This document shows positions 33,875 to 53,006 of a DNA stretch of 64,000 nucleotides, piece after piece. The stretch is from positions 224,001 to 288,000 of the forward strand of contig CAWAGQ010000004.1 in assembly GCA_963781585.1 (NCBI GenBank), in the 5' to 3' direction. Position 1 is the first letter of the stretch. The number at the start of each line of letters is the position of its first letter. A program made the translations under genes and the position numbers. This DNA comes from an uncultured Gemmatimonadaceae bacterium. GTDB lineage: Bacteria > Gemmatimonadota > Gemmatimonadetes > Gemmatimonadales > Gemmatimonadaceae. The notes beneath the pieces are model-generated. The model was not told the DNA's origin. It worked only from the letters and a program-made list of their open reading frames with translations, and searched no databases.

Positions 33875-33948
<74 letters not shown>

Positions 33949-33977
33949 CTGTCGCCAATCGACTGAGGCGATCTGTC

Positions 33978-34973: not shown

Positions 34974-35293
34974 AGTTGATTGGGAGGACGCGTGTGCAGT
35001 GCACACGTCGTATGGAAATCGTGCGCAAACTCGACCTCAGGAGACTGCGCACCATGGGCCTTCGTCACGATCTGCGCCCGCGTATGCCGCTGCCCGAGCG
35101 AGAGTTAGACTTTAGACGGCTATAGTCTGGCGGGTTGTGGCGCCGGGGAGATTGGTAGTCCCACCGGGCTGCCACGAGGGGATCGCAGGCCCGCTCATGC
35201 CCTTGCCCGTCCTGCCTCGCGGCGGGCTCTCATGCCGAATGCGAAGACGCGGTTGGTATCGGAGGCTTCGCGCCGTTATCGTCAGACCGGACT

Positions 35294-35367
35294 GGCAGGG
35301 TAGCTCAGGTGGTTAGAGCACGGCACTCATAATGCCGGGGTCGTGGGTTCGAGTCCCACCCCTGCTA
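35294..35367 (+). tRNA. tRNA(CAT), probably elongator tRNA-Met; integration target
   Basis: GGCAGGG/CCCTGCT acceptor stem, CGGCA-CTCATAA-TGCCG anticodon arm, GTTCGAGTC T-loop; Ile2 identity not excluded. Confidence 0.92.
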
Positions 35368-36626
35368 TTCGGAAGCCGCGGGCCCGCACCGGGTTGGCGG
35401 CTTTCCTCGTTAGGTGCCCCGGTTTTCGGTACCACCGGTGGTACCTCAGCCGACCGCGTCGGGCGCTTCGGATCAAGCTCCGCGGCGATCCGTTCCCAGC
35501 GATCGCGCTCGTCGGAGCGTGGCGCGTACCGGCCATACACGGTGGCCACCATCTGCACGTTGGCGTGGCCCAGCTGGCGCGCGACGAGTTCGTAGGGCGT
35601 GCCGGCGCGGATCGCCCGGATGGCGTAGAAGTGCCGCGCGTCGTGCAGCCGATGGGGCGCAAGCTCGAGTGCCGTGAGCGTCTCGCGGTGGACGTCGCCG
35701 GCGTGCCATCGATCGATGCCACGGAAGAGTCGCTCTCCCGGCGTCAGCCGGCGGACGTGGGTCTCGAGGTACGGCCAGGCCCACTCGGCGACCCGGACGA
35801 CGCGATCGCGCGCGTGCGCCTTCGTGCCGCGGGCGCGCACCTCGCGTCGGCCGACGTCCACGTCGGCATCGCTGCAGCGGAGCGCCGCCGAGATCTCGAC
35901 ACCGGCGCCGTACAGCAGCGCGAAGAGCGCGCGGTACGGCTTCCGCGCGTGCTCGACAATGCGCACCACGTCCTGGTGCACGAGCTCCACGACCCGAGGC
36001 CGCCCGGGTGGCGGAGCCGCGACGTCGCGCGCGGGGTTCGTCGTCAAGACGCCGACCTGGACGAGGTAGCCGGCGAAGCTCTGCACGGCGGCCAGGTACT
36101 TCCGGCGCGTTGATCCGGTGATCGGGCGTGATGCAGGATCCGGCCGACGTCGGGATTTCGCACGCGTCGATGCCTTTCGCTTCTGCGGGAGCGTGCTTCG
36201 CTCGGCGAGCCAGCGCGCGATCGCCGGCGCCGTGAATTCTGCGCGCGGGAACACACCGCCCTCGGGCATCAGCGTGCGCAGATGCGCCAGGTAGTGCGTG
36301 CGCGTATCTGGCCGAATCCGGTCCATCAGCCACTCTTGCCAGCGCTCCACGTGCTCAGCCAGGTCAACCTCCTCGAGGCGACCGCGCAGACCCTCGAGAT
36401 CGTTCTCGCGGTACGCGTCGAAGAGCGCACCGAGCGAGAGCGTGCCGTCGACGACCGCGCCCAGGAGATCCCACTCGCGCCGGCCCTTCGGCCCCAGCAC
36501 CTCGAGCATGCGCTCCATTGCCATCGCAGTGGGTTTGTGCGTCGTGCCCGTGGAACGCTTCACCCAGCCATGCGGGGTCGGCACAGCCAGAAACCAGGTC
36601 GGACGGTCGGTGCGCTTGTACACCAT
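35313..36626 (-). CDS. int: Tyrosine recombinase/integrase
   Basis: HDARH, QLGHA and VYGRY box II motifs; adjacent to attL and reads through it into the tRNA antisense. Confidence 0.92.
   Translation of the reverse strand: MVYKRTDRPTWFLAVPTPHGWVKRSTGTTHKPTAMAMERMLEVLGPKGRREWDLLGAVVDGTLSLGALFDAYRENDLEGLRGRLEEVDLAEHVERWQEWLMDRIRPDTRTHYLAHLRTLMPEGGVFPRAEFTAPAIARWLAERSTLPQKRKASTRAKSRRRPDPASRPITGSTRRKYLAAVQSFAGYLVQVGVLTTNPARDVAAPPPGRPRVVELVHQDVVRIVEHARKPYRALFALLYGAGVEISAALRCSDADVDVGRREVRARGTKAHARDRVVRVAEWAWPYLETHVRRLTPGERLFRGIDRWHAGDVHRETLTALELAPHRLHDARHFYAIRAIRAGTPYELVARQLGHANVQMVATVYGRYAPRSDERDRWERIAAELDPKRPTRSAEVPPVVPKTGAPNEESRQPGAGPRLPNSRGGTRTHDPGIMSAVL
35325..35372 (+). repeat. attL core, 48-bp direct repeat
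   Basis: ACTCATAATGCCGGGGTCGTGGGTTCGAGTCCCACCCCTGCTATTCGG identical to 53093-53140. Confidence 0.97.
35428..35445. promoter_or_regulatory. Candidate integrase arm-type/accessory site (left)
   Basis: GGTACCACCGGTGGTACC palindrome, 17/18 identical to 52989-53006. Confidence 0.55.
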
Positions 36627-36629
36627 GCG

Positions 36630-36878
36630 TTAGGCGCTCCGTTGGACGGCGTTCCTCGTGTGCCAGCGCGCCATCCAGGCGCGCACGTCGCGGGGATCGT
36701 ATCGCACGAGCGGCTGGCCCTTGGTGCCGGTACCAGGGAGCAGCACCTTCGGGCAGCCGCTCTCCCGAAGATAACGAGTACTGACGCGGAGAAAGGCGGC
36801 GGCTTCCTTCTGCGTCCAGAGGCCTTCCGCCGGCGACGTCTCGGCGCCGCGGAGCGAGCGGTCGACGGCGACCGTCAC
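36630..36878 (-). CDS. Excisionase-like HTH protein
   Basis: LWTQKEAAAFLRVSTRYL...VRYDPRDVRAW pattern directly upstream of int; GTG start. Confidence 0.8.
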   Translation of the reverse strand: MTVAVDRSLRGAETSPAEGLWTQKEAAAFLRVSTRYLRESGCPKVLLPGTGTKGQPLVRYDPRDVRAWMARWHTRNAVQRSA

Positions 36879-37609
36879 GGCGCGGCCCCGCGTGTGCAGC
36901 TTATGGGGGCGCACCCCACCGGATAATTCCGGGTGCACCCCGACGGCTGGCCCGCCCCGAGGTAGGGCTCCGGTGGGCCGGGAGGGTTCGGGAGATGGAC
37001 TGCGTGCGGCGCCGGATCCGGCACCGCCGGGTGCGTCGCCAAGGGCGGCGATGGATCCGCGAGCCCGATCAAGGCAGCATGACACTGCTCGAGCACCGCT
37101 GCGCAGTCTTCGTAGAACGCGGTCCAGCGCTCGTGCCAAGCCGCATCCCCCAGGTACTCGCACGGCGGGCGATCGGATGCTGACTGGTATTCCGACTTCG
37201 TTATCGCCGCCATCCAGAACCGGTGGCACTCCGCATCCTCCAGCATTTGCGGCACCAGCGCCAATGCTCGCGCTGCGAGATCTCGGAGTGGAGCGCCGCC
37301 GACAGCAGCCGGCGCGATCGGGGCGGTGGCACTGGCGCTCACCTGACGAGGCCCCGCGGATGGAGGAGCGCGCCGCGCGTGAGGAGTCCCGAGCCGCCAA
37401 GGGCCGCCAGGCTCGGCCCCGGGGAGCTCCCGCGGCCCGGCGCCGATCGTGGATCGCCCCGCAGAACCCGAGCGAGCGGCGAGTGGTCCGCTCCTTAGGC
37501 GTGGCATGGGAACGCGCTGCTCGCGCCGCCTGGCCTTGAGCCGCCGGGGCGGTCCTCGGTGATCCGCCTCGAGGAAGGCTGGGGTGGACCCGCAGGCCGG
37601 CGCCCTCAT
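36875..37609 (-). CDS. Hypothetical protein
   Basis: Start and stop overlap both neighbours (ATGA/GTGA-type coupling). Confidence 0.5.
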   Translation of the reverse strand: MRAPACGSTPAFLEADHRGPPRRLKARRREQRVPMPRLRSGPLAARSGSAGRSTIGAGPRELPGAEPGGPWRLGTPHARRAPPSAGPRQVSASATAPIAPAAVGGAPLRDLAARALALVPQMLEDAECHRFWMAAITKSEYQSASDRPPCEYLGDAAWHERWTAFYEDCAAVLEQCHAALIGLADPSPPLATHPAVPDPAPHAVHLPNPPGPPEPYLGAGQPSGCTRNYPVGCAPISCTRGAAP

Positions 37610-38106
37610 GCGAGCGCCACCTCGTATTCCGGAGGTGGCGCGACCGGCTCGAACTGTTCCGATGGCGGAGGCGGACGGCGTCCCGCTGCGGCCCGCTGCA
37701 GCAGCTCCCGGCGCGCGGGGTGATCCCAATCCAAGGGCACCAGAACCCACGAGAGATGCCGGCGCGGATCCCGCCGGTACTGCTCTTCCAGATGCCATTG
37801 ACGTGCCGTCTCAATGTCGAGCGGACCGGAGGCGAGGCCCGGATTGTTCGCACGCGTCGCCACGTAGCAGATCGCCCAGGTCACGGCATCCGGAACGGGG
37901 TACTCCGCCCGAGTGCCGCGCCGCCGAACCGGCAGGCCCTTTCGCGCCCAGTTGCGCAGCGTCTGGTCGGTGACGCCGAACGTCTTGCACATCACGTCCT
38001 GGGAGAGGTGCGCGGGGCGCCGGGGCGAGCGCGCAATTGGCGCGTGCAGCGTTAGGCTCGCGAACGGACTCGGCCTGGGCTGGCGGCGCTGGCGAGGCGT
38101 GCTCAT
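37606..38106 (-). CDS. Lambda gpNu1-like small terminase / Rpp-like DNA-binding protein
   Basis: FGVTDQTLRNWARKGLPV...YPVPDAVTW matches the Nu1 winged-HTH pattern (FGASIRTIQNWQEQGMPV...YDSAAVIKW). Confidence 0.72.
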   Translation of the reverse strand: MSTPRQRRQPRPSPFASLTLHAPIARSPRRPAHLSQDVMCKTFGVTDQTLRNWARKGLPVRRRGTRAEYPVPDAVTWAICYVATRANNPGLASGPLDIETARQWHLEEQYRRDPRRHLSWVLVPLDWDHPARRELLQRAAAGRRPPPPSEQFEPVAPPPEYEVALA

Positions 38107-38163
38107 CTCACCGGTGCCCACAAACCAAAAGGGTGCGTGCGGGCCGCCGTACAGAAGCCGATT

Positions 38164-38205
38164 GGGGTTCTCGGTCCCCCGGTGAAGACCTTCCAGGGAG
38201 GACCC
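38164..38205 (-). other. Candidate cos site (cosQ + cosN-like)
   Basis: Minus strand GGGTCCT (lambda cosQ sequence) followed about 19 bp later by GGGG-ACCGAGAA-CCCC, just upstream of the Nu1-like gene. Confidence 0.5.
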
Positions 38206-38260
38206 GCGGCCCCCTCGGGGGCCCCTCGTCCGCGGACAAGTCCGCGCATGGTCCGCGGAC

Positions 38261-38461
38261 TCATCGGGGAACTCCGAGCGCGCCCGGACGCTCGCCGTCG
38301 CCGCGAACCGCGACCAGGGGGGCGCAGTCGCAGATGCCGAGCCCGGCGAGCATCGCGCAGCCGGCGTCGTGGTGCACGTCGACCTGGATGACTTGGCCGG
38401 GCCGCAGCTCCAGCGCCCGGAGTAGCTCCAACGCGATCGGCATGTAGGCCGGTAGCTTCAT
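38261..38461 (-). CDS. Small Cys/His-rich hypothetical protein
   Basis: HHDAGC...CDCAP; start overlaps the helicase stop. Confidence 0.6.
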   Translation of the reverse strand: MKLPAYMPIALELLRALELRPGQVIQVDVHHDAGCAMLAGLGICDCAPLVAVRGDGERPGALGVPR

Positions 38462-39612
38462 GCGCCCTCCGCCAATGCCAGACGCGTCGCCTCTGGCTCG
38501 CTGAGCAGCCCCGGATTCTCTCCTTCTAGCAGCCCGCCGGCTCCGTCGCGGAGTCCAGCGTCTTGCCGGACAGTCCGTAGTCCGGGTCTTAGAGACCCGG
38601 ATACGGACGAACTACTGTCCGAGCAGTCAGACGCCCGAATGTCCGCGAACCGTTCGCGAACGGTTCGCGAACCGATTTCGAGACCCAGCTGAGTGATACC
38701 GGAAGGGGTGGGGTACCATTTCCCATCCCTGTTCTCGGCAACGAGTTCCCGCTTGATGAGCTCAGCCTTGATGGCGTAGAATCTCGTCTTGCCGATGCCG
38801 GATCGGTTCAGCCACTCCGTGGGCTTCAACGCGCGCGCGGATTCGTGCAAAGCGGCCAAAACGGTTCGCGAACCGATTTCTAATGTTCCGGCTCCCGTCG
38901 CACGCTCCACGACGACTGAATCGCCGCGGCTCACGAGCTCGAGCAGAAGCGGATCTCCGGGCTGGAAATCCCGTGCCTTCACCACGGCGAGCTTCACCGT
39001 TGATCGGCCCATCCGCTCGACCGACATCACCACGTCCGCGCGCCCGCGGAAGGCCGAGGAGCCTCGCTCTCGGCTCCCTTCCCAGCCCGCATGGTGGTTG
39101 ATCAGGGCCGCGCAGCCGAGGGCGAGCTGCAGCCGGCCGACGCCGTGCAGGAATTCCCCGAAGTGTTGTGCGGAGTTTTCATCGAAGCCCGGGGGCGCGG
39201 TGGCGGCGAGCGTATCGATGATCACCAGGGCCGGTCTGAAATGCGCGGCCTCGAGCGCGGCCAGGAGCTCTGCGATTCCTTCGGGGAGGTGGAAGGCCAC
39301 CGGCTCCCCGAGATAGCGCACGCGTTCCAGGTTGCAGCTCTCGTGCGCGCTAATCCACGCCTGGACGCGCGAGGGGATGCCGCCGAAGCCCTCGGCGATG
39401 ACGTACAGCACGGACGAGGGGCCCGCTATCGGGAGCCCGGCGAATGAGCGCCCAGTGGCGATGCTGTGGCCCATGCCGATCAGCAGGTGCGTCTTCCCGA
39501 CGCCCGACGCGCCGTACATGACATGTAGGCAGCCCTCGAATACGAAGCCCGGGAGCAGCGCCGGAATCGGCTTGGCGTCGGCAAGGAGCTCCTCGGCGGT
39601 AATCAGTTTCAT
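38458..39612 (-). CDS. RepA/AAA_25-type SF4 helicase with C-terminal wHTH
   Basis: Walker A GASGVGKT, AEG, IIDTLA Walker B, DENS, HHAG, RGSSAF motifs. Confidence 0.9.
   Translation of the reverse strand: MKLITAEELLADAKPIPALLPGFVFEGCLHVMYGASGVGKTHLLIGMGHSIATGRSFAGLPIAGPSSVLYVIAEGFGGIPSRVQAWISAHESCNLERVRYLGEPVAFHLPEGIAELLAALEAAHFRPALVIIDTLAATAPPGFDENSAQHFGEFLHGVGRLQLALGCAALINHHAGWEGSRERGSSAFRGRADVVMSVERMGRSTVKLAVVKARDFQPGDPLLLELVSRGDSVVVERATGAGTLEIGSRTVLAALHESARALKPTEWLNRSGIGKTRFYAIKAELIKRELVAENRDGKWYPTPSGITQLGLEIGSRTVRERFADIRASDCSDSSSSVSGSLRPGLRTVRQDAGLRDGAGGLLEGENPGLLSEPEATRLALAEGA
38641..38880. repeat. Iteron-like repeats (candidate replication origin)
   Basis: GT(T/C)CGCGAAC at 38641, 38652 and 38663 (11-bp period); 21-bp exact repeat at 38659-38679 and 38860-38880. 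Confidence 0.6.
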
Positions 39613-39878
39613 CGCCCGCTCCTCAGCACGGGCCGAATCGAACTCGCGCGCCGCGAGCCGCCTGATGATTGGCGAGCTTCGCGTCGGGCCAGCTCTAGCT
39701 CGAGTGCGTTCAAGCCTCGCGTTAGGATGCCGAGGAGGACCGGGCCCCGGTGCGGCGCTGGCTTCCTCGCGACGTCGACGAGCCAGGCGCGCATGACCAG
39801 GCGCCGTCGCTCGAGCTCGGTGGTCGGGCCTGACGCGTAGGCCCGCAGGGCGGCTTCTCGTGCCGCGTCGTCGATCAT
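39609..39878 (-). CDS. Hypothetical protein
   Basis: Co-oriented; stop overlaps the helicase start. Confidence 0.5.
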   Translation of the reverse strand: MIDDAAREAALRAYASGPTTELERRRLVMRAWLVDVARKPAPHRGPVLLGILTRGLNALELELARREARQSSGGSRRASSIRPVLRSGR

Positions 39879-39924
39879 GCCCGCACGCTCCACGTTGCCT
39901 TTCCCCGCACGCAAGGGGGCCGCC

Positions 39925-40167
39925 TCATTTCGCGGCTCTCTGCGCGAGCTCCGCCTTCGCGCGCTGGAGCGCCGCGATCAGCTCGTCGAGGCGGTGCGGC
40001 GGAACCGTGACGCCCTTGCGCGTGGGGTGCCATCCCCCGTCGGCGGCGCGGAAATACGTCCGCACGTCGACGAATTGGGCGTCCTTGTATCGCCCCACCT
40101 GAATCTGCAGCCGCTCGCCGTCGCGGCCCTTCGCGATGACGGCCAGAGGCGCCGCGGTGTCGCTCAT
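39925..40167 (-). CDS. PC4/YdbC-like ssDNA-binding protein
   Basis: YKDAQFVDVRTYF...WHPTRKGVTV PC4 signature. Confidence 0.88.
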   Translation of the reverse strand: MSDTAAPLAVIAKGRDGERLQIQVGRYKDAQFVDVRTYFRAADGGWHPTRKGVTVPPHRLDELIAALQRAKAELAQRAAK

Positions 40168-40493
40168 CGCGACCCCCCGACTCGATCGAGAGCGCGGCGC
40201 AGCTCCCGCAGTTCATTCGCGCGGAAGTTGAGGCCCCTCCTCGTCGGCAGCCACTTGCCATCGGTGGTCTTGAAGAACTGGCGAAACCCAATCTGACGGA
40301 CTCCCTTGAAAGTCCCGACCGTCAGCCAGATTTGGGTCGTCTCGTCGCGCGGGAAGCGCGCGAGGATGCGCAGCGGACTCGCGGGGGCAGGCGCGGGCAG
40401 ATTCCCTCGCGGGGGGCTGGCGCGCCGCGAGGCATCGTGTCTACTTTTCAAACGCTCAGGTTGCATGTTGACCAGAGTGGTTTGTGGATTCAT
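40164..40493 (-). CDS. Second PC4-like protein
   Basis: FKGVRQIGFRQFF...WLPTRRGLNF PC4-like signature. Confidence 0.78.
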   Translation of the reverse strand: MNPQTTLVNMQPERLKSRHDASRRASPPRGNLPAPAPASPLRILARFPRDETTQIWLTVGTFKGVRQIGFRQFFKTTDGKWLPTRRGLNFRANELRELRRALDRVGGSR

Positions 40494-40539
40494 GTCGCGC
40501 GCCCCCGCGGATGCCATCGTCGGGGGCGCGGTGCTTTTT

Positions 40540-41313
40540 CTAGCCTTTAGCGCCCGTGACCATCGGCGCGTATCCGGGCGTGACGCGCGGCCCCGTCGGC
40601 GTACCCGGCTTCTCCGACGCCGATTTCTGCTCGCGGCGGACGACGCGACGCGGCGCCGCATCCGGACCGCCCGGGTTGCGCGTGCGGTGGTAGAAGGGCT
40701 GCGCCACCCCACCGCCTAAGCTCGGCGGCGATGTGAGATCCGGAATCAGCACGCTGTCGTCATACCTGAGCATTCGCTCATGGCCACGGATGATTTCGAC
40801 ATCCTCGCCTTCCAGCACATCGTCCAGCTCTGCGGCTCGGCCGGATTTCTTGACGGCATAGTACAGGCGGTCTTCCTCGCTTAACGCGGCCTTGTCGCTG
40901 GCGAGCGCAACGCCCACGGCACGCAGCATCATCTGGTGCTCGACGGCCGCCCGGTACCGGGCGGTCCGCATGGCGCGGTACGCTGCGATGTCGACGTCTT
41001 CAGTCGCCCTCTTCAGCTCGGCTTCGCTCGCCGCGAGTCGCTGCTCGGCTGCGCGCCGGCGGATTTCGAGGCGCCGGATCTCGTCGCCGAGGCTCCGAAT
41101 CTCGCTATCGCGGGCCGGCAGATGGAGGGGCACCTCCTGCTGCAGATCCGCCTGCAGCTGCTTCTCCGCTTGCGCGTGGCGCTCCTTCGCGGCGGCAAGC
41201 TCCGCGTCGATGTCCGCGAGCCGGTGTCGCGCCTTCTCGACGTCGGCAGCGGGGGTCTCGACGTCTGCTCTGCCGGCGTCGGCGTGCGCTCGTGCGGTGC
41301 GTGCTTGACTCAT
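40540..41313 (-). CDS. Coiled-coil hypothetical protein
   Basis: Heptad-rich Ala/Glu/Arg N-terminal half. Confidence 0.65.
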   Translation of the reverse strand: MSQARTARAHADAGRADVETPAADVEKARHRLADIDAELAAAKERHAQAEKQLQADLQQEVPLHLPARDSEIRSLGDEIRRLEIRRRAAEQRLAASEAELKRATEDVDIAAYRAMRTARYRAAVEHQMMLRAVGVALASDKAALSEEDRLYYAVKKSGRAAELDDVLEGEDVEIIRGHERMLRYDDSVLIPDLTSPPSLGGGVAQPFYHRTRNPGGPDAAPRRVVRREQKSASEKPGTPTGPRVTPGYAPMVTGAKG

Positions 41314-41354
41314 CTGTGGACCTATTGGCGGGAAGGAAAGTGAGAGCGCGCCGC

Positions 41355-41984
41355 CTAACGCGAGCCGAGCGCGCCGGTTCGTTCCGGGAAGAAGCTGGCG
41401 GCCCGGCGTTCGATCGGGTCAGGAGAGTCCGGCCGCGCGAAGCCCGGGTGCGCGAGGGCGTGGCTTTCCTCCACCAGCTGATCCTCCCGGCTCAGGCGAT
41501 CGCGTTCCGCCCGGAGATCCGCGGCCAGGATCCTCGGGCAGGTTCCGGCGCTCAGCGCTAGGTCAAAAAGCGGCCGGAGACGCGGATCGGGGAATTGGCG
41601 CGCGAGCGCCTCGAAGGCGGCGCGCCTGCGCGCTGCTTTCTCTGCTGCCGTCGGAGGGGCCGGCGCCGGCGCGGCGGCATGCATGGGGGGCACCGCTACC
41701 GCCACCGCTTCTGGCTTTGGGCGCGGCGCTGGCGCCGGCTTTGCCGACGGCACCTGGCACCGTGGGGTAGCCGATGACGGGGTGCGGAGCGCGAGCGCCA
41801 ATCGGGCTCGTGCGTGTGGTCCGTCATCACCCGCGTGCAGGAAGGCTTCGACGCGCCTGGCCATCGCGAAGACCTCGAGCGGGTCGCTGGCTAGACGCGC
41901 GCGCACGGCGGCGACGTCGATCTCCCGGACGAAAACCAGGCCTTCGTTCACCAGGGCGAGCGCGGAGCGAGCGTCCTCGATCAT
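41355..41984 (-). CDS. Hypothetical protein
   Basis: Start overlaps the upstream stop; Pro/Ala linker. Confidence 0.55.
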   Translation of the reverse strand: MIEDARSALALVNEGLVFVREIDVAAVRARLASDPLEVFAMARRVEAFLHAGDDGPHARARLALALRTPSSATPRCQVPSAKPAPAPRPKPEAVAVAVPPMHAAAPAPAPPTAAEKAARRRAAFEALARQFPDPRLRPLFDLALSAGTCPRILAADLRAERDRLSREDQLVEESHALAHPGFARPDSPDPIERRAASFFPERTGALGSR

Positions 41985-42199
41985 CGGACGCCCCCCGCAC
42001 CTGCCATGGGCCGCAGATGCGAAAACGAGTCACTATCCCGGAGCGCATTGAGCACGGTGCGGCGGATGAAGTAGCGTTGTCCGACCGTTCCCTCAACGAT
42101 CACGCCCGCGACGTTGCCGAGCTGCATTTGTCGGAGGAGACGCTCGCGGCTCATCCGCAGCTCGAATGCGGCGCGACTGATGGGTACGAGATCATCCAT
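41981..42199 (-). CDS. AlpA/Xis-like small HTH protein
   Basis: ISRAAFELRMSRERL HTH; first gene of the leftward operon, divergent from the repressor. Confidence 0.6.
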   Translation of the reverse strand: MDDLVPISRAAFELRMSRERLLRQMQLGNVAGVIVEGTVGQRYFIRRTVLNALRDSDSFSHLRPMAGAGGVR

Positions 42200-42291
42200 G
42201 GAGAGACCCCTTGACGGTTATGCGCGCGGCAATAGCTTTACGTGTGCAGCGTATACATCGCGTGCCATCAACGTAGACGAGAGCGTACACA

Positions 42292-42999
42292 ATGGCAAGG
42301 GGAGAACTTCTGGAAGACTCTTTGCGCGAACGCCTGGCGCAGCTGGTGAGAGCACGGTACCCGGACAGCGTCAACCGGGCTGCGCGTTCCATCGGCATTC
42401 CACAGCCGACACTGCACAGCATTCTTTCGGGAAGAACGGCCGAACCCCGGGTGCCCATCGTGCAGAAGATCGCTGCGCATTTCGGCGTCACGATCGATTG
42501 GTTGCTCACTGGCAGCGGCAATGCCGAAGCGCCCGAACACTCCGGACGGCCGACGCCACATTCCGAGCGAGCGCTGCAGGCCGTGGATCTGAATCCGCGC
42601 CTCCTCGGCCAATGGCTGAATTCCGTGCCAGGCGTACTCCACTCCGTCTTTCAGGTGATTGACCGAGAGCGTCTCATCGGAGACTATCCGAAGGGAACGA
42701 CGACGCAGGCCGTGGCCACGGTGAAGCGGCGCCAGGCGAATGAGTATCTCGATCGGTCCCTGGCCTTGGCCATCGAGGTTCTGATTCTGGAGCGCGGCCC
42801 GGAGCGCGCCCGTGAAGCACTGTCCCGCCCCGATGTGCTCGCGGCCCTCTCGCATTTGAGAGTCGATACGCCCGGGCCGACCGTCGAGGAAGTGGAGCAC
42901 TGGCGTAGCTATATCGATCAGGCCCCGAACTCGACCGGCGCGTCCGTAGGATCCCTTAGCCCGCGCCGCCGGAAGCACTCGCCGAAAAGAAAGCGTTAG
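42292..42999 (+). CDS. XRE-family repressor
   Basis: SVNRAARSIGIPQPTLHSILSG...IAAHFGVTIDWLLTG HTH_3 pattern. Confidence 0.85.
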   Translation: MARGELLEDSLRERLAQLVRARYPDSVNRAARSIGIPQPTLHSILSGRTAEPRVPIVQKIAAHFGVTIDWLLTGSGNAEAPEHSGRPTPHSERALQAVDLNPRLLGQWLNSVPGVLHSVFQVIDRERLIGDYPKGTTTQAVATVKRRQANEYLDRSLALAIEVLILERGPERAREALSRPDVLAALSHLRVDTPGPTVEEVEHWRSYIDQAPNSTGASVGSLSPRRRKHSPKRKR

Positions 43000-43007
43000 G
43001 CGCACGC

Positions 43008-43328
43008 TCAGGGGGCGAGCCTCGGGCCCATCGGGTCGATGCGATCGAGGTGCTGCTCGAGCCACGCGATCGCGTCGAGCACGTCCTCGTACTCCCAGCT
43101 GCGGCCCTCACCCCACCAGGGCAGCGTGAGCTCCGCGATGACAACGCCGGTCGACGTCCGCGCCGCCAGGCGCGTGAGACCGCCGGCGGCCGGCAGCTGC
43201 ACCACGCCGCGCTCGCCTGGCCAGTCGCGCCCCTCGGGCTGATCCCCGGCGTCCGCCCGCTCGACGAGCGAGACCGTCCTCCGCCGATGCTTCACTCCCG
43301 CGTTGTTGCTGGGCAGGCTCTCGCCCAT
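43008..43328 (-). CDS. Hypothetical protein
   Basis: ORF downstream of the ImmA-like gene; start uncertain. Confidence 0.45.
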   Translation of the reverse strand: MGESLPSNNAGVKHRRRTVSLVERADAGDQPEGRDWPGERGVVQLPAAGGLTRLAARTSTGVVIAELTLPWWGEGRSWEYEDVLDAIAWLEQHLDRIDPMGPRLAP

Positions 43329-43356
43329 CCCATGATCCCCGCGCCTCCGGAAGCGG

Positions 43357-43860
43357 TTACTTCGCGGCATGATCCGCCCCCGTTACATCGCGCCGCGTGG
43401 AGTCAACGGAGGCCGCGCCCGTGCCGCCGTGCTGCCCCGCCAGGAGGCGATCGACAAAGAGATCGGCTTCCACCTCGACTTGCGCATCGATCGTGGCACT
43501 GCGGGCCGGCGCGGCGTCGCCAACGTGGTTCAGCGCAATGTGCGCGAGCTCGTGGAGCACGGTGCGGACCAGGGCTGCTCCGCTGAGCTGCACGTGCACC
43601 AGGATCACGGCGACACCGCCGGCGGCGAAGACGAGCCCGGGTCGCGGGAGCGGCGCGCGGATCAGCACGATGCGTTCGCGCTCGAGCACCGCGATGAGGC
43701 TGGCGATGGTGATCTCACGGCGGAACTCCGGGTGCCGCTGGCGCCACGCTTCGACGGCCAGGCGCACGGTCAGCACGCGCGGCCGCAGCCGGCGCAGCGG
43801 CTCTCTGGGGAACGGGACGAGCGCCGACGTCGGCGCCGTGTACGGGACTGCGGTGGCCAT
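43357..43860 (-). CDS. ImmA/IrrE family metallo-endopeptidase
   Basis: RTVLHELAH HExxH plus EVEADLF motif. Confidence 0.82.
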   Translation of the reverse strand: MATAVPYTAPTSALVPFPREPLRRLRPRVLTVRLAVEAWRQRHPEFRREITIASLIAVLERERIVLIRAPLPRPGLVFAAGGVAVILVHVQLSGAALVRTVLHELAHIALNHVGDAAPARSATIDAQVEVEADLFVDRLLAGQHGGTGAASVDSTRRDVTGADHAAK

Positions 43861-43992
43861 GAGGATCCCCTCCGGACTGGTGGCGCCCGGAGGCCCGCCC
43901 GCGCTACCTTACGCGCGCAGGCCCTCGGGTCTGTGGGGAGCCAGTCGGAGATCCTTCCTGGGAGACACCGGCTGGCTCTTTCTATGCCGGAG

Positions 43993-44039
43993 ATTATACG
44001 CAAAAGCGAATTGCGTCAATATGCAGCTTTGCGTATAGT
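43993..44039. promoter_or_regulatory. Back-to-back divergent promoters with an inverted-repeat operator
   Basis: + strand TTGCGT-17-TATAGT; - strand TTGACG-15-TATAAT; TATACGCAAA...TTTGCGTATA inverted repeat. Confidence 0.7.
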
Positions 44040-44047
44040 GCAGTCCC

Positions 44048-44272
44048 GTGAGTCCGATCCGCCTCCGACTGCGCGAGCTCCGCGAAGCGAAGGGCCTCTC
44101 ACAACAGGCCCTGGGAGAGCGCGCCGGCGTCCGCCAGGCGACGATCTCGCAGCTCGAATCTGGACGCAAGCAGCGACTCGATTTCGGAATCCTCGAGCGT
44201 CTCGCCGACGCTCTCGGCGTGGAACCGGGCGAGCTCCTCGAGCGGGACGGGAAGCGGAAACGGGCTCGTTGA
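44048..44272 (+). CDS. Small XRE-family HTH regulator
   Basis: LRELREAKGLSQQALGERAGVRQATISQLESG; near-leaderless GTG start. Confidence 0.9.
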   Translation: MSPIRLRLRELREAKGLSQQALGERAGVRQATISQLESGRKQRLDFGILERLADALGVEPGELLERDGKRKRAR

Positions 44273-44275
44273 AAG

Positions 44276-45040
44276 ATGGCCGACATCAGTAGGGCCCTTG
44301 TTGAATCAGTCGCGCGTGGCCTGGACGTCGCGCACGAATTCCTGGATGGGGTCGAGGATCTCGGCGGACACATCGGGCTGATCCAAAAAGCCTTCAACGG
44401 TGTCCAGCAAGCACGTCTGAGGCGCTTTCTGCGCGCATTGGCTGCGCGGGAGCAGGAATTGACCGATGAAGAACGGGAGCAGCTCTACAAGCGACTCGAC
44501 ACGAGAGCTGGCAGGGAGCTCCTGGTTGACGCAGTCGACGCAGTCATCCGAACGAATTCGAAGCGCGCGGCCGCCGCTCTCGGACTCCTTATCGGGGATC
44601 CTTCCGGTGAGCGGTTCAATCCGAGCTTCCGGCGTAATGCGTGCGAGGCTCTGCGCGGACTCTCAGACGACCAGGTTGACCTTTTTCTCGCGTTGCTCCG
44701 AATAGCGCGCGAAGTACCGCAGCAATCTCAACGCACGATTCAGGGCGACGAATACGTAACGGACATTGGCATTTGGCACGCTGCGGCAAACGCCCAAGGG
44801 GTCAGCCTCCTCATTCAGCCCTTATACGCAAGACTCGGCCTAGACCCTTGGACTATCAGAAGTCGCACAAATCAGTTGATCACGCGCGGGCTCTTATTGC
44901 CGGACGTAGGGACGCGCGTGGACACCCAAGAATATCTGACTTTCGCATTCGGTGGCGAGTCCCTCCTGTTCGAGGATCTCTTCGTACGCGCTCGAGGCGC
45001 GATCGGTCCCGACGGAGATGACAGCGAACTCTCGAGGTGA
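44276..45040 (+). CDS. Hypothetical cargo protein (possible Abi-alpha-like defence protein)
   Basis: Co-transcribed with the XRE gene; atypical codons; helical N-terminus and wHTH-like C-terminus. Confidence 0.6.
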   Translation: MADISRALVESVARGLDVAHEFLDGVEDLGGHIGLIQKAFNGVQQARLRRFLRALAAREQELTDEEREQLYKRLDTRAGRELLVDAVDAVIRTNSKRAAAALGLLIGDPSGERFNPSFRRNACEALRGLSDDQVDLFLALLRIAREVPQQSQRTIQGDEYVTDIGIWHAAANAQGVSLLIQPLYARLGLDPWTIRSRTNQLITRGLLLPDVGTRVDTQEYLTFAFGGESLLFEDLFVRARGAIGPDGDDSELSR

Positions 45041-45211
45041 TCGGACGAGGATTCGGACGCCTCCCGCTGCTCCAGATCTGGGACCGGCTGGACTGTATGG
45101 GGGGAAGGAGGAGAGGGGGGTCTGTACGCACAGGGAGCACTCCGGCCATCCCTCCACTGGCTCATCCCCAGGTTGCCAACGGCACTGCCACCACGTCACG
45201 TTACTTAGCGA

Positions 45212-46051
45212 ATGCCCGCACCACTTGTCGCCCCCGACTCCCTGCAGATCAGGCGCTCTGCATTTGCCCAGATCTACAGTCGACCTATTGAGATCCAGCG
45301 CGCCGAGGCTCTTGCGTTCTATGAGCTGATCACTCGAGACATCGGGCACTTTCCCGAGATGCTGAACCAGCCAACCGGGCTCGTGTTCAAGCGGCGCGCC
45401 GGCCAACACGTCTCGGAGGTACAGGTGAATCGCGTGAACATCGCCGGCCAACCACGTGGACCAGCGCCTGCGGCAACTCGGTTTCTATTTGCAGAGACGG
45501 GATCGACGCGCCCCGTCTCCGAGTTCAGCGCCGAAGTGGCTGCTGCGGTGGAGGCCTTCCGATCGAAGTGGCACAGCGTCGGCCGGGTCACGGTGACGGA
45601 GGTGTCCTTTCAAGCCACTGTCGCTGTGAACCACCCGGAGGGGTCAATGGGCTTCATCCGAGAGAGACTGGTCCCATCCGCAAACGACAAGGCACATCTC
45701 GGGCGCGATTTCCCAATCGCCCAAGTGAGGCTGACTGCTCCGCTCCAGCTCATCGCCGAGGGCGGACAGAGCGAGCCGCGTCATATACTCGACGATGCCG
45801 AAATCAGCCTGAGGTTGGAGCCCTTCGCCGAGGACCCCCGTTTCCTCTGGCTCGAATCCATTTATAAGTGGCCCCTTGTCCAGATGAGCCTGCAGGATGT
45901 GCCCATACCCGATGACGTTCGTTCAAGTCTCCCCCTCGGCCGCTCTCTGGAAGTCAATCAGAGCGAACGTGAAACGACTAGCTACATCACTGCGGGCTAC
46001 AACTATGTGAACAACAATGTCACCCCGTACCTCCAAGCGCTGGGTCGCTGA
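45212..46051 (+). CDS. Hypothetical cargo protein
   Basis: 279-aa ORF, lower GC than host genes. Confidence 0.65.
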   Translation: MPAPLVAPDSLQIRRSAFAQIYSRPIEIQRAEALAFYELITRDIGHFPEMLNQPTGLVFKRRAGQHVSEVQVNRVNIAGQPRGPAPAATRFLFAETGSTRPVSEFSAEVAAAVEAFRSKWHSVGRVTVTEVSFQATVAVNHPEGSMGFIRERLVPSANDKAHLGRDFPIAQVRLTAPLQLIAEGGQSEPRHILDDAEISLRLEPFAEDPRFLWLESIYKWPLVQMSLQDVPIPDDVRSSLPLGRSLEVNQSERETTSYITAGYNYVNNNVTPYLQALGR

Positions 46052-46071
46052 TTCTCCGGGAGACGCTTCGA

Positions 46072-46368
46072 ATGTCAACCCTTACCAGTGCAAACCCGCT
46101 CGAGGTGTCCATGTCTGAATCTGGCGGGATGTTGCCAGTGCCGATCTTGGTCCTCGCCCTTTCGCTGCAGGGAGTCACGATCACCGACGCTCGGCCGCCG
46201 ATGGCGGTCGCACCCGCAGCCCTTCCAATCGGCGCGGCGACGCAGGGAGGCGATGCCCTGTCGTTTGCAGATGACGACCTCATGCCGGTCGGTCTCTCGA
46301 CCATGGAGCTGGCTGCCATGGCCCGCGGTCGTATGGGCGGAGACGCGAATCACATGCTCGACATCTGA
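46072..46368 (+). CDS. Small hypothetical protein
   Basis: Fills the gap between two co-oriented cargo genes; start uncertain. Confidence 0.4.
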   Translation: MSTLTSANPLEVSMSESGGMLPVPILVLALSLQGVTITDARPPMAVAPAALPIGAATQGGDALSFADDDLMPVGLSTMELAAMARGRMGGDANHMLDI

Positions 46369-46379
46369 CCAACGGGAGG

Positions 46380-46836
46380 CCTGTCCCCCTGTTCGAAGAT
46401 GCCAGCGGTCCGCTCTCACAGGGGGACCTCTTTCTCGTCGGACTGGGACGAGGACCGCGCGACACGATTGGGTGCGGTCCTTGTCTTGAATCATTCGTGC
46501 GAGCTTGACAAATCCGCCGTGGACTTGGTCCTCGTCGCGCGCGTGATCCCTCGCATGGGAACGGACCCGGGACTATGGGGCGACATCCAGCGCGGTCGAG
46601 TGTGGCACGCCTTGCTCGCGGAGGGACTGATGCCGGAGGCTTGGATCAGTCTCCGGGAAATCCTTCCCATATCGAAAGCGGTGCTGATAGAACGGATTGC
46701 ACGCAGAAGGCTTACTCTTACAGAATCCGGTCGCCTCGCGCTGGCCGAGAAGGTGTTCCAGTGGCTCACTAGGAGCTTGCCGCCCGCCAAGCGCGGCCCA
46801 CAGCTCTCATTTCCTATCACCGATCCCCGGCCGTAG
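46380..46836 (+). pseudogene. PemK/MazF-like hypothetical protein, apparently frameshifted near 46434
   Basis: LSQGDLF in one frame and VLVLNHSCELDK...VLVARV in the next frame. Confidence 0.5.
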
Positions 46837-46922
46837 TCCAACACGGGTAGCCGCCGCCGGTGCGATCTTCCGCTCCGCGACCGATGGGGTAGGTTCCGAA
46901 GCAGTCCCGTCATGGAGCGCCG

Positions 46923-47303
46923 GTGCCACGACCCTCGCTGAGGCCCACCTGGACCGAGCAGGCCCTCCGCCTGATCGGATGGGTCACGGTCATCGTGTCG
47001 ATCTTCGCGGGCATGGCATGGCTCGCGAATTCTGGCTCCGATCCCGCGGCCGCGGCATACGGCGTCGCTGCAATGCTCGTCGGGCTCTGCGCGGCGCCGG
47101 TGACGTTCGCGCTCGCGGAGATCCTCGAGCGATTGCGCCTCACTCAGGAGCGCGCGCTGCAGTCCGAGTGGGATCGCGAGCATCCGAGGTCCGAGACGCC
47201 GCCGCCGGCGACCAGGCGCGATAGAGAGCGGAGCAGGGAAGCACCGGTGCCGGCACCGGCACCTGCGCGTCAGCCAGATGCAGCCCCGCGGCGATTCCGC
47301 TGA
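46923..47303 (+). CDS. Two-TM membrane protein
   Basis: Two hydrophobic helices; GGAG RBS. Confidence 0.65.
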   Translation: MPRPSLRPTWTEQALRLIGWVTVIVSIFAGMAWLANSGSDPAAAAYGVAAMLVGLCAAPVTFALAEILERLRLTQERALQSEWDREHPRSETPPPATRRDRERSREAPVPAPAPARQPDAAPRRFR

Positions 47304-47759
47304 GGCGACGTTAGGCATAGCATGTCGAGAACCGCTCCGGCGTTCCCAGGCTGTGGCCTGATCCCTCTTTGCCTCCCAAGGAGCTCAGGATGCCGGTGGC
47401 TTTGGGGGACCAGGCGAGTCCGGATGGCACTTTTTCCGCTTCTTCCCGGACCCGCACCCGCATCCGGCGCAACGGGTGGGCCCCGACACAAAGAGCGCTC
47501 CTGGCCGGCGAACGCGGTCCCGGGTCCGGCATCGGCGGCTTTACGATCTGCAGGACCTCGCCCGCGCGGCGACGTTCTGGGAGACGCGAATGCCCGGCGT
47601 GCCATCGGCGCTGCGTATCGACATTGAACGCCTGGTGCAGCTGACGGCGCCATCTCCTGGCCGCACGAGGGGGTGAGCTCTCCGCCGTCCCACGGCCCGT
47701 ACCATTGGCATTGCCCGAAAGTCGCCCGGGGCCGTCGGGGGACCCGGCGAGATCGGGCC

Positions 47760-48092
47760 TCAGGCGTGATCGTGCGAAGCCGGGGCGGGTGTCGGCGTCG
47801 CGGCGAGCGGTGAAGCTGCCGGCGCGGGGTCCCGGGAAAAATGAAGGCGGTACTCGCGGGTCCGGCGGTCTGGTGACGCCTGCGCCTCGAGGTAGCCGGC
47901 GCCGCTGAGGCGACGCAGCGCGACGCTCGCCGTGGACTCGCTCACCACGGCCAGGCGCGCGACGACGACGAGCTTCACGTGCCGGAACTCCACGAAGTCG
48001 AGCACGTCGCTGATCGCGAGGAGCACGCGCACATCCGCGGCCCGGAGCTCCGGCGCGCCGGCGGCCTGGGCGATCGCCGGAAAGAGCGTCAC
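47760..48092 (-). CDS. Small winged-HTH protein
   Basis: VARLAVVSESTASVALRRLSGAGYL pattern; starts 1 nt after the tape-measure-like gene stop. Confidence 0.65.
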   Translation of the reverse strand: MTLFPAIAQAAGAPELRAADVRVLLAISDVLDFVEFRHVKLVVVARLAVVSESTASVALRRLSGAGYLEAQASPDRRTREYRLHFSRDPAPAASPLAATPTPAPASHDHA

Positions 48093-48093
48093 G

Positions 48094-52371: not shown

Positions 52372-52377
52372 CGCCGG

Positions 52378-52950
52378 TCACTCCAGCGGGAGAAGGGAGG
52401 ACTGCGCTCGATTGCCGAAGATCATCAGCAGTTTCAGATAGTCCTGGACCGCCTTGAATCGCTGGAGGGCCAGGAGCGCGGTCTCGGGCCCGATCATGGC
52501 GCCCTCGTGGAGCGCCTGGGTGGCGCGCTCAAGATCGCTGATCCCCTGGTGAATCACCCGAATGCTGGCGCCGATTACGCCCGCCAAGTCGACGAGTCGC
52601 GCCTCCTCGGCCGGCGTTCGCCCGGGCCTCGCCGCCAGCCGGCGATAGTGCTCGTTCTGTTCGAGCAGGCGCCCCCCCCCGAGCTGCGCCGAGAGCCGCA
52701 TGACCCCCTCATGCCCGAGGACGGCCCCGATGGTCTTGTCGAGTGATCGGAGCGCTGAGGCCCGCTCTGCGTCGTTGAGGGTCGCATCCTCGGGCGTCGC
52801 GGGGGCCGTGAAGACCTGCCGGATCCGGCCGAGCTCCGCGAGCATCTGATCGGCGAGCTGCTCGCGGTAGGCGAAGGCGGCCTCGGTGAACTCGCGCAGC
52901 AGCGCGGGCTCGATGCCCGGAAAGATCGGCGGCGTCCGCGGCGCGATCAT
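52378..52950 (-). CDS. Hypothetical helical protein upstream of the tape-measure-like gene
   Basis: Co-oriented, 6-nt gap to the next gene. Confidence 0.6.
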   Translation of the reverse strand: MIAPRTPPIFPGIEPALLREFTEAAFAYREQLADQMLAELGRIRQVFTAPATPEDATLNDAERASALRSLDKTIGAVLGHEGVMRLSAQLGGGRLLEQNEHYRRLAARPGRTPAEEARLVDLAGVIGASIRVIHQGISDLERATQALHEGAMIGPETALLALQRFKAVQDYLKLLMIFGNRAQSSLLPLE

Positions 52951-52988
52951 CGACCCGCGGTCGCTCGACGTCCGAGGCGCGGCCACCT

Positions 52989-53006
52989 GGTACCACGGGT
53001 GGTACC
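52989..53006. promoter_or_regulatory. Candidate integrase arm-type/accessory site (right)
   Basis: GGTACCACGGGTGGTACC, matches 35428-35445. Confidence 0.55.

Follow-up and report, generated by a model that had tools for sequence, protein, structure and literature searches.

The integrase gene of an integrative element of a Gemmatimonadaceae bacterium reads through the whole of the element's attachment site and stops inside the host tRNA gene that serves as target, and integration exchanges the C-terminal end of the encoded protein (Int). This recombination-dependent swap of the Int C terminus is real, and we put at roughly 0.6 the probability that it amounts to a selected, state-dependent change in Int function. 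That the change is specifically one of protein stability, a degron switch, is a tentative proposal. The element lies in the window, by which we mean the whole 64-kb stretch of DNA analyzed.

The attachment site and the integrase reading frame

The features on which the argument turns are given below; positions are those of the window, and features marked unstranded carry no strand assignment.

35293–35368, plus strand: tRNA-Met(CAT), the integration target (ARAGORN)
35313–36626, minus strand: tyrosine integrase ORF, 437 aa, ATG start (ORF list and Pfam)
35313–35324, minus strand: host-encoded end of Int, A-V-L codons and TAA, antisense to the 5' strand of the anticodon stem and to the D-arm; exchanged at excision
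35325–35372, unstranded: attL core, an exact 48-bp direct repeat identical to 53093–53140 (repeat search and script)
35371–35405, plus strand: element-borne, terminator-like hairpin inside the int ORF, directly 3' of the rebuilt tRNA (folding)
35373–53092, unstranded: body of the integrative element (ORF and family-profile matches)
35428–35445, unstranded: P' arm-type site pair, GGTACC twice with a 12-bp period, inside the int ORF (motif search)
52989–53008, unstranded: P arm-type site pair, GTGGTACCA twice with a 12-bp period (motif search)
53035–53041, minus strand: CGCGGCG motif directly beyond the circle-form stop (attP arm comparison)
53042–53092, minus strand: P-arm segment encoding the circle-specific Int end, RVDPEGESAAPGENEE and TGA (in-silico join)
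53093–53140, unstranded: attR core, the displaced 3' part of the tRNA (repeat search and script)
53140–53171, plus strand: host hairpin that adjoined the tRNA before integration (folding, −33.4 kcal/mol, z −6.39)

A repeat search returned a direct repeat of 60 nt (35320–35379 and 53088–53147, 95% identity) that contains the exact 48-bp block, and from the spacing of the two copies of this block the element is 17,768 bp long. The exact block begins one base 5' of the anticodon loop and ends 4 nt beyond the tRNA's 3' terminus, and the 3' part of the target tRNA-Met, from the anticodon loop on, is thus supplied by the element. The hairpin that directly follows the rebuilt tRNA folds at −27.4 kcal/mol (z −3.45), a stability that none of 200 shuffles attains, and it fails a strict T-run terminator scan. 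Besides int, the element carries MerR-like HTH, AAA_25 primase/helicase-like, PC4-like, and HTH_3 repressor-like proteins and a 1425-aa ORF that matches no family; no capsid or tail matches were obtained among the proteins of the element body. The MerR-like ORF, at 37606–38121, is a candidate directionality factor for excision. A minus-strand ORF of 305 aa across attR (53042–53959) was considered but not taken for a gene; GC at its three codon positions is 0.57/0.76/0.73.

The Pfam match of Int to PF00589 (Phage_integrase) is confined to residues 216–365 (37.3 bits, cut-off 27.1), leaving some 70 residues C-terminal to the catalytic domain, for which the P' arm, the hairpin, the core, and antisense tRNA sequence provide the codons. 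Columns that are invariant across 74 homologues include R275, R331, H354, and Y364, with H332 almost invariant; together these five are presumably the catalytic Arg/His/Arg/His and the Tyr nucleophile. GC3 falls from 0.8–0.97 in the body of the gene to 0.60–0.67 in the tail, which has no coding-type GC3 signal.

In the integrated state, the ORF crosses arm-type sites, the hairpin that resembles a tRNA terminator, and the entire core and stops in the antisense D-arm. It ends in ...SRGGTRTHDPGIMSAVL, that is, ...DPGIMSAVL, and its TAA stop lies opposite a TTA of GGTTAGAGC, which belongs to the D-loop. The initial annotation had placed the att core inside int, with the frame running across the whole attL core into the tRNA antisense; the ORF and repeat coordinates bear this out and put the core 3' of the catalytic domain. 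The start codon and the full catalytic domain remain on one side of attL. When the left flank of attR, the core, and the int tail were joined by script, the frame ended in ...DPGIMSRVDPEGESAAPGENEE with its stop at 53042–53044, exactly the circle-form end that had been read earlier from the letters. The two states thus encode different predicted ends, ...GIMSAVL when integrated and ...GIMSRVDPEGESAAPGENEE on the circle, as the initial annotation had claimed, the circle form of this element being a prediction from the in-silico junction.

Repeated sequence near the cores is consistent with lambda-like arm-type sites in both the P and the P' arm. All five matches of GGTACCAC in the 64-kb window lie no more than about 105 nt from one or the other core (0.59 expected), and none of 100 shuffles reaches five. 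In a comparison of four elements, in which the repeats are spaced 12 bp apart and the P' pair lies inside the int tail, the P' and P pairs share an element-specific sequence in every case (GGTACC, TGGGTACC, TGGGTACA, and CTGCCGTCCA). Judged by this sequence pattern, the putative arm sites are real. The P' pair of the window encodes EVPPVVPK within Int. Because the GGTACCAC sites cluster at the cores and read-through recurs in many homologues, the att layout is not attributable to chance.

Conservation of the frame and composition of the tails

IMSAVL is the C-terminal end in 81 of the best 120 database homologues; in the same 120, DPGIM is followed by a different tail in 10 more, and one sequence is truncated at that point. 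At the DNA level, read-through was found in 30 of 42 distinct syntenic loci. It is kept at 24 of the 28 loci with at least 55% identity, and lost at the other four: L052 is frameshifted within an A10 run, L087 and L088 are two occurrences of one frameshifted gene, and the site of L035 has decayed. Below 55% identity only 6 of 14 loci read through, and integrases without read-through occur at the same tRNA-Met (L027, L028, L030, and the L004 group). The expectation that homologues would keep the read-through therefore holds for the closer relatives and fails for many of the distant ones, which stop before att. On a quick IQ-TREE tree read-through is patchy, with at least seven changes forced. 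One relative (L021/G105) reads through antisense tRNA-Asn-like sequence, which ARAGORN does not call as a tRNA and which matches the Rfam tRNA family without an acceptor stem; its contig ends 3.2 kb past int.

The linker that separates the catalytic domain from the tRNA contains no in-frame stops, whereas its two alternative frames average 1.0 and 1.97. At least 22 different linker lengths occur among 100 read-through proteins, and all are in frame. By this comparison of sequences, the open frame across attP is evidently maintained by selection.

Tails of the attP type occur naturally, in P0005, P0008, and others, and in the phage contig L131, which encodes a replication initiator, a resolvase, and a terminase and in which int crosses the core with no tRNA adjoining; L079, an integrated relative of L131, ends in SAVL. 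A search of viral contigs with the single Int protein gave no match, and a search with the Int alignment gave four loci, among which only L131 reads through the att core. The 17 attP-type tails comprise 12 that are net acidic, one that is neutral (P0034), and four that are net basic (L131, with the 10-residue RHASARKREG, and P0094, P0046, and P0041). Nine are exactly 17 residues long, with net charges of −5, −3, −1, −4, −3, −3, −5, −3, and −2; they look homologous and so are not nine independent observations. As a control, stop-free 17-mers taken from the window in all six frames have a mean charge of +1.68, with a probability of 0.038 for a charge of −3 or below. In six of seven attP arms examined, no other frame is as acidic as that of int, whose net charge runs from −5 to 0 where the remaining two frames give +1 to +7. 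What is conserved is an acidic, proline-rich composition rather than a motif. The contrast between a nonpolar AVL end and an acidic end, as drawn in the initial annotation, is accordingly kept in the element's own clade and is not universal.

Some properties of the tail may belong to the DNA. The sequence T(A/G)A-CGCGGC, stop codon included, is kept in four attP arms, and in longer tails (P0010, P0034, and L006) the CGCGGC motif is translated as ..RG(T/V)... Since the fixed spacing of 51 nt ends at this conserved motif, the tail length may reflect DNA architecture and not the protein. DNA and RNA functions (arm sites, hairpin, and tRNA) dictate most of the tail sequence.

Possible consequences of the exchange

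Since the frame is kept by selection, the swap very probably serves a difference in Int behavior between the two states, as for IntP and IntX of Mx8. The 3' end of int overprints the whole of attP (P' arm sites, replacement terminator hairpin, 48-bp core, and 51 nt of the P arm), so that recombination in the anticodon-loop region would alter the protein. The integrated copy encodes an Int that ends in three nonpolar residues derived from the host tRNA (...GIMS-AVL), and the excised circle, or a tandem junction, would encode one with a 17-residue proline-rich, acidic tail. The anatomy of the site, its conservation, the maintained frame, and the acidic bias of the tail are established by the sequences; that the swap would have a phenotype, and the direction it would take, we infer. 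The most likely mechanism would be altered Int abundance: the swapped residues would sit at the tip of a long, predicted-disordered tail, where a nonpolar free end is the type of signal recognized by AAA+ proteases and an acidic cap the type that blocks such recognition. Int would then be scarce during the integrated state and stable when it is needed to integrate.

Such a putative degron switch, with unstable integrated Int and stable circle Int, is plausible, although we hold it only tentatively as the specific form of the change. A fuller version, which we consider somewhat unlikely in all its particulars, would have the attP-spanning frame act as a sensor of recombination state, in which a nonpolar degron antisense to the tRNA is masked by the 17-residue acidic cap from the P arm, Int is long-lived only when made from the circle, and the arrangement has long been kept in a clade of Gemmatimonadota phages and small elements, independently of Mx8.

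Support for the degron reading is indirect and consists of the predicted disorder of the tail, the host tmRNA tag, and the scarcity of terminal Leu in host proteins. An AlphaFold2 model of the natural attP-form protein P0008 (mean pLDDT 87.8) has values below 50 for residues 409–452, which predicts that the last 45 or so residues of Int are disordered. The host tmRNA tag is ANNNLALAA, and integrated Int ends in SAVL. According to an excerpt of a review, the LAA variants LVA and AAV still work in Escherichia coli, and DAS weakens ClpX binding. The AVL end differs from the LAA end. Terminal Leu is depleted about 3-fold among the ends of 2,233 likely host ORFs, none of which ends in AVL; because only about two such ends are expected, the zero count is uninformative either way. 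Proteome-wide C-terminal statistics of this kind are too generic to weigh on the degron idea.

Alternatively, the exchange could act on the activity or directionality of Int. An acidic, disordered tail present only on the circle could tune synapsis or the binding of DNA, for instance through electrostatic competition at the surfaces that bind arm or core, and its loss on integration would leave Int less active or differently directed. We judge this rather unlikely, yet it has points in its favor: conservation of the tail as a composition would suit such a role, and, as a review excerpt describes, recombinant Mx8 int escapes inactivation, with its specificity and efficiency altered. The N-terminal part of the P0008 model, which matches no Pfam family, forms two β-strands (residues 11–16 and 21–25) and a helix (31–44) with pLDDT near 96, and together with the paired arm sites this suggests a tunable, lambda-like, arm-dependent reaction. 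Against such a role, the swapped residues lie about 85 residues past the catalytic Tyr, in the segment with pLDDT below 50, with no predicted docking, and the phage L131 does without an acidic tail.

The effect could also lie in RNA, with the passage of ribosomes or transcripts over attP mattering (through polarity or the 3' part of the int mRNA) and the peptide irrelevant and merely kept harmless; on the circle, int may in addition join co-directional genes past attP. Retroregulation from lambda sib is a precedent for a change in the 3' part of an int mRNA. The gene order of the element would allow this, as orf210 (52378–53010) and the 1425-aa ORF are co-directional with int, starting 31 nt past the circle-form stop, and the downstream genes of L131 are co-directional too; the lack of a coding-type GC3 signal in the tail also fits. 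In G273, G070, and G190, however, the first ORF with a coding signature past the P arm lies on the opposite strand, so operon continuity across attP is not general and was set aside as a general explanation. Consensus scans for terminators (both strands) and promoters at both ends of the element found none, the RNA of the P arm folds no better than its shuffles (z −1.71), and a frame-specific acidic bias is not expected of a constraint on RNA. An RNA-level effect is improbable on this evidence.

Equally improbable is neutral overprinting, in which a lost stop let int extend, without consequence, through stop-poor DNA: the G+C content of 64–72%, the patchy read-through on the tree, the ...PAL endings in frame 2 of a few relatives (P0183, P0221, and P0238), and the antisense of tRNA-Met, which happens to be open in the int frame as far as the D-loop while its other two frames stop within the anticodon loop and at the tRNA's 3' terminus, would all permit it, and it is opposed by the retention of the frame at the closer loci, where failures are frameshifts or decay, by the many linker lengths that are all in frame and free of stops, and by tails that are acidic whereas random open frames are basic.

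Comparison with known systems

A state-dependent integrase sequence has so far been documented for the Myxococcus phages Mx8 and Mx9. If the preferred reading of a selected change in Int function is true, the element described here adds a second integrase with a protein sequence set by integration state, one of separate evolutionary origin and far wider distribution. The overprinting is unusually dense, for about 250 nt serve at once as arm sites, tRNA terminator hairpin, 3' half of a tRNA, crossover site, and coding sequence. Because the swapped part is tiny and transplantable (3 residues against 17), the old question of how elements hold Int down when integrated and have it available when free is directly testable. 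For annotation, integrase ORFs of Gemmatimonadota that overlap tRNA genes should not be trimmed as artifacts. A literature search for the same layout elsewhere or in Gemmatimonadota returned only Mx8, SSV, and BPs; most subscription journals lay outside its scope, so the layout may be published.

The initial annotation had cited Mx8 and the mycobacteriophage BPs as precedents. For BPs the parallel is looser than claimed, because there it is the repressor gene 33, and not int, that contains attP, and the polarity runs the other way. Excerpts of the BPs literature describe integration as altering a C terminus that controls proteolysis, with the viral form bearing an ssrA-like tag and unstable and the prophage form truncated and stable. 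BPs and the present element are alike in having attP within a coding sequence, so that integration changes a C terminus. In BPs, however, the unintegrated form carries the nonpolar tag, whereas here the unintegrated end is acidic and the integrated end nonpolar. The HTH_3 repressor-like ORF of the element (42292–42999) lies some 7 kb from att. BPs Int also bears a C-terminal proteolysis signal, one that, by the same excerpts, is apparently not altered by integration.

The archaeal integrases of the SSV type, termed suicidal, likewise have att inside the int ORF. As far as the excerpted accounts go, integration splits int in two in those systems, whereas the present Int keeps its whole catalytic domain and changes at the extreme C terminus only.

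The lambda-type tRNA integrases (sublocation A of the Islander paper, of which we cite an excerpt) share with the element a restored 3' part of the tRNA and a block of identity that starts at the anticodon loop. A further likeness is the paired arm-type repeats in both arms, and a possible one, in the model, is a small N-terminal domain of β-sheet and helix followed by core-binding and catalytic domains. In the usual layout of this type, int stops before the P' arm, as it does in L027, L028, and L030, whereas the ORF of the window continues through the P' arm, the hairpin, and the core and takes in part of the P arm.

The precedent of Mx8 is sound. An excerpt of a review reports that integration gives its int gene a new 3' end and hence a different C terminus, with a proposed role in control of prophage stability, and the Islander excerpt states that the Mx8 and SSV integrases extend across attP. 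Mx8 Int contains an antisense-tRNA-like motif, ...STGLEPV..., near residue 415 of 533. In both Mx8/Mx9 (intP/intX) and the present element, the core lies in the int ORF, past the catalytic domain and in antisense orientation to a tRNA gene. About 115 residues follow the motif in Mx8, and a large segment is therefore exchanged there, whereas in the present Int 3 residues take the place of 17. The hosts belong to different phyla, and the present element is 17.8 kb long and has no recognizable virion genes. Direct BLASTP of Mx8 Int against the Int of the window (E 0.27) detects nothing beyond the superfamily, and tblastn of Int against 50,697 phage records at 1e-5 gave one unrelated match of 29%, with Mx8 not among the matches. 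Within the limits of the BLASTP test, the resemblance appears to be one of design and not of descent. The placement of attP within int thus resembles what is known in kind from Mx8 and is new in its variant form.

The element and its att-spanning integrase gene

ARAGORN identifies two tRNA-Met genes within the window, both on the forward strand (33875-33949 and 35293-35368), and a direct repeat starts at the second of these, with its other copy 17,768 bp rightward. The exact repeat block is 48 bp (35325-35372, identical to 53093-53140) and extends from one base ahead of the anticodon loop to four bases beyond the tRNA 3' end. This is typical of integration at the anticodon loop by an element that carries a replacement for the 3' half of the tRNA. 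The first tRNA-Met(CAT) precedes the target by 1.3 kb, and paired adjacent tRNA-Met genes are also present at several related loci. Named homologues place the host in the Gemmatimonadaceae.

Features of the element
35313-36626, reverse strand: int, 437 aa
35371-35405, strand opposite to int: strong hairpin directly after the rebuilt tRNA (-27.4 kcal/mol, z -3.45)
35428-35445: pair of GGTACC repeats, 12 bp apart, the first part crossed by the int tail in the coding direction
48094-52371, reverse strand: 1425-aa ORF, the largest gene of the element (GC3 0.88, strong coding signature)

Besides int, the 17.8-kb element encodes MerR-like HTH, AAA_25 primase/helicase-like, PC4-like, and HTH_3 repressor-like proteins as well as the 1425-aa ORF, which has no Pfam or PHROG match. 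No match to a virion protein was found in the element.

The Pfam Phage_integrase match to int is confined to residues 216-365. The last ~70 residues are read from the left end of the element, the whole core, and then the antisense of the tRNA 5' half, such that the tail crosses, in coding direction, the GGTACC repeats, the hairpin, and the tRNA 3' half. The stop codon is TAA, the complement of TTA in the D-loop, and the integrated protein ends ...SRGGTRTHDPGIMSAVL. The initial annotation was therefore correct that the ORF reads through the attL core and stops in the tRNA antisense. It was also correct about the end of the circle form: when the DNA left of the right-hand core is joined in silico to the left-hand core, the int frame ends ...DPGIMSRVDPEGESAAPGENEE, with its stop at 53042-53044. 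The host's original hairpin remains at attR (-33.4 kcal/mol, z -6.39). GC3 in the int tail is 0.60-0.67 versus 0.8-0.97 in the gene body; the body's signal is absent from the tail, consistent with its DNA and RNA duties. A 305-aa ORF (53042-53959, reverse strand) crosses attR in the int-tail frame; as it has no coding signature, it was ruled out as a gene and is likely a false call in annotation.

Matches to GGTACCAC number five in the 64-kb window, all at the two element ends (0.59 expected; none of 100 shuffles reaches five). Both ends were located in four elements, the present one and those of genomes G273 (9.4 kb), G070 (about 26.9 kb), and G190 (11.5 kb). Each of the four has its own arm-repeat sequence, shared by the pair in the int tail and a pair in the other arm, 82-103 nt beyond the core; the four arm repeats are GGTACC, TGGGTACC, TGGGTACA, and CTGCCGTCCA. 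By sequence, these pairs behave as arm-type integrase sites, and the int ORF accordingly spans the P' arm (the int side) and the core and extends 51 nt into the P arm.

Conservation of the read-through

Among the best 120 database homologues, 81 end ...IMSAVL, 10 have another tail after ...DPGIM, and one is cut there. The remaining 28 are without the tRNA signature; many are fragments or more distant proteins, the latter (363-385 aa) stopping just past the catalytic domain. A further 146 cluster representatives (50% identity) include 8 that end SAVL, 133 without the tRNA signature, 3 that use the other open antisense frame and end ...PAL, and 2 that read a different antisense tRNA-like sequence. 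Proteins P0128 and P0129 and loci L021/L136 of genome G105 read through antisense tRNA-Asn-like sequence (anticodon loop CTGTTAA; Rfam tRNA match of 52.8 bits that does not include the acceptor stem; no ARAGORN call) and stop in the D-arm.

DNA loci were considered independently of gene calls in 401 family genomes and in genome, metagenome, and viral contigs, with synteny as the sole criterion (an Int C-terminal match with antisense tRNA-Met no more than 330 nt away). Thirty of 42 distinct syntenic loci read through to SAVL. The expectation that homologues keep the read-through holds for relatives with at least 55% identity to the window Int (24 of 28) and fails for most of those below 55% (only 6 of 14 read through). 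Of the four closer relatives that fail, L052 has a one-base slip in a ten-A run, L087 and L088 are two instances of one frameshifted gene, and L035 has a decayed site. The A run of L052, a metagenome contig, lies just past the catalytic domain, and the next frame reads ...DPGIMSAVL; this shift may stem from a sequencing error or a mutation, or may mark a slippery site.

At least 22 linker lengths occur among 100 read-through proteins, and in the read-through loci the int frame of the linker is free of stops, whereas the remaining frames average 1.0 and 1.97 stops. A linker that is highly variable yet never goes out of frame is held open by selection. In a quick tree of 72 rows (from which duplicates, matches under 300 residues, and those interrupted by stops were excluded), the window belongs to a 19-row clade with full support. 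Fourteen of these rows read through, two are truncated at contig ends, two have no nearby tRNA, and one is L052. Read-through is also found in other branches, and at least seven state changes are forced. Read-through is thus stable within clades, but neither universal nor clearly of single origin.

Relatives show other arrangements. At three metagenome contigs (L075, L076, and L077; 46% identity), the tRNA-Met is on the strand of int itself, the reverse of the usual orientation, and the reading frame terminates within the tRNA sense sequence (...RVAQLVRARHS). A C-terminal extension of ~100-130 residues with an HTH-like motif, LGVSDxALRKHL, is present in L004, L007, L029, L036, and L106 and in proteins P0160, P0168, P0192, and P0225. 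In L004, L007, and L029, which have tRNA-Met downstream, the extended int stops about 127 nt short of the tRNA. The extension represents another use of the space between catalytic domain and att.

The two C-termini and the possible effect of their exchange

Tails diverging after ...DPGIM(S) were taken from database proteins, from joins made in silico, and from chromosomal sites at which the first element borders directly on a second one or its remnant (G190, G070, L006, and one locus in G007). Genome G007 is unpublished, and no data from it may appear in print unless its depositors agree; it supplies one of the nine 17-residue tails described below, and the conclusion stands without it. Beyond attR in G190 (L047/L048) and G070 (L045/L046), the DNA encodes the tail of a further integrase, which has arm repeats of its own and ...NSRGG. 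In G070, a third copy of att comes after another 1.8 kb, and behind it is a hairpin region that closely resembles window 35373-35420. Elements thus stack in tandem at this tRNA-Met, and inner integrases gain the P-arm tail of a neighbor.

The proposed contrast between polar and nonpolar ends is borne out in part: the net charge is negative (acidic) in 12 of 17 attP-type tails, zero in 1, and positive (basic) in 4, among them the short tail of phage contig L131. Nine tails are exactly 17 residues long and rich in Pro, Ser, Asp, and Glu, with ends that include DDEE, DDAE, DPEA, ESEA, DAEA, QDAE, and ENEE. Their net charges are -5, -3, -1, -4, -3, -3, -5, -3, and -2, although these tails are evidently homologous and do not represent nine independent observations. 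Control stop-free 17-mers from all six window frames have a mean charge of +1.68, with P(charge <= -3) = 0.038, and in 6 of 7 P arms with DNA the int frame is more acidic than either alternative. The P-arm motif CGCGGC(A/G) is found exactly 51 nt from the core (53035-53041 in the window, and likewise in G273, G070, and L006); it directly follows the stop of 17-residue tails and is translated as RG(T/V) in three longer ones. It is probably a protein-binding site, and its conservation after the stop suggests that the 17-residue length may be set by the DNA.

Contig L131, which encodes a replication initiator, Holliday-junction resolvase, endonuclease, and large terminase, has an int that runs on through a core lacking an adjacent tRNA. 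The nearest relative of L131, the integrated L079, ends SAVL, and the two together provide natural evidence for the existence of both forms of Int.

An AlphaFold2 model of a natural attP-form protein (P0008; 74 aligned homologues; mean pLDDT 87.8, pTM 0.72) is confident over most of its length and shows an N-terminal unit of two strands and a helix, then helical domains for core binding and catalysis, and a long helix (371-399). Confidence collapses from about residue 400 to the end, with pLDDT below 50 for residues 409-452, and the swapped residues are thus predicted to form the loose end of a disordered tail.

The analysis establishes the anatomy, the existence of two alternative ends and their conservation, selection for an open frame, and the acidic bias. 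We favor, with a probability of about 0.6, a selected, state-dependent change of Int function, in which the exchange of tails would alter Int behavior. Within this reading, the single likeliest mechanism, itself tentative, is the recombination-controlled degron switch put forward in the initial annotation. The exchanged residues are only those at the very tip of an unstructured tail, the part of a substrate that AAA+ proteases engage. The host tmRNA tag is canonical and ends LALAA; according to review accounts of the Escherichia coli tag, the last three residues decide recognition, nonpolar variants work, and DAS weakens ClpX binding. Terminal Leu is depleted about three-fold at the ends of 2,233 likely host ORFs, but this is general to protein ends and favors a stability switch only slightly. 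Nearly as likely, and still doubtful, is an effect of the swap on activity or directionality, of the kind reported for the prophage form of Mx8 Int. It is improbable that the run-on across attP acts at the RNA level: genes beyond attP are co-directional with int in the window and L131, but G273, G070, and G190 do not fit. Pure neutrality of the overprinting is just as improbable.

Comparison with known systems

Myxococcus phage Mx8 is the closest system. Review accounts support the cited precedent of an attP within int, with integration giving a new 3' end, and the Islander paper states that Mx8 and SSV integrases extend across attP. The Mx8 Int record (533 aa) contains the antisense-tRNA-like ...STGLEPV... 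at about residue 415, and some 115 residues follow it. No similarity to the present Int is detectable (E 0.27); the two share a design, but membership in one family by descent is not supported. The mycobacteriophage BPs precedent is more distant than the initial annotation implied: attP is in the repressor gene, and it is the viral form that carries the ssrA-like tag, the prophage form being stable. BPs Int bears a proteolysis signal at its C-terminus, and in the text consulted integration is not said to alter this signal. SSV-type integrases are described as split by integration, unlike the present Int.

The literature searched, with most subscription journals outside its scope, contains no account of an attP-within-int layout in Gemmatimonadota and describes no acidic/nonpolar Int tail swap. 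The present arrangement, which confirms the observation in the initial annotation and supports its interpretation in part, is an Mx8-like attP-within-int, set apart by its breadth in a little-studied phylum and further distinguished from Mx8 by a very small, compositionally conserved swapped segment and by dense overlapping functions.
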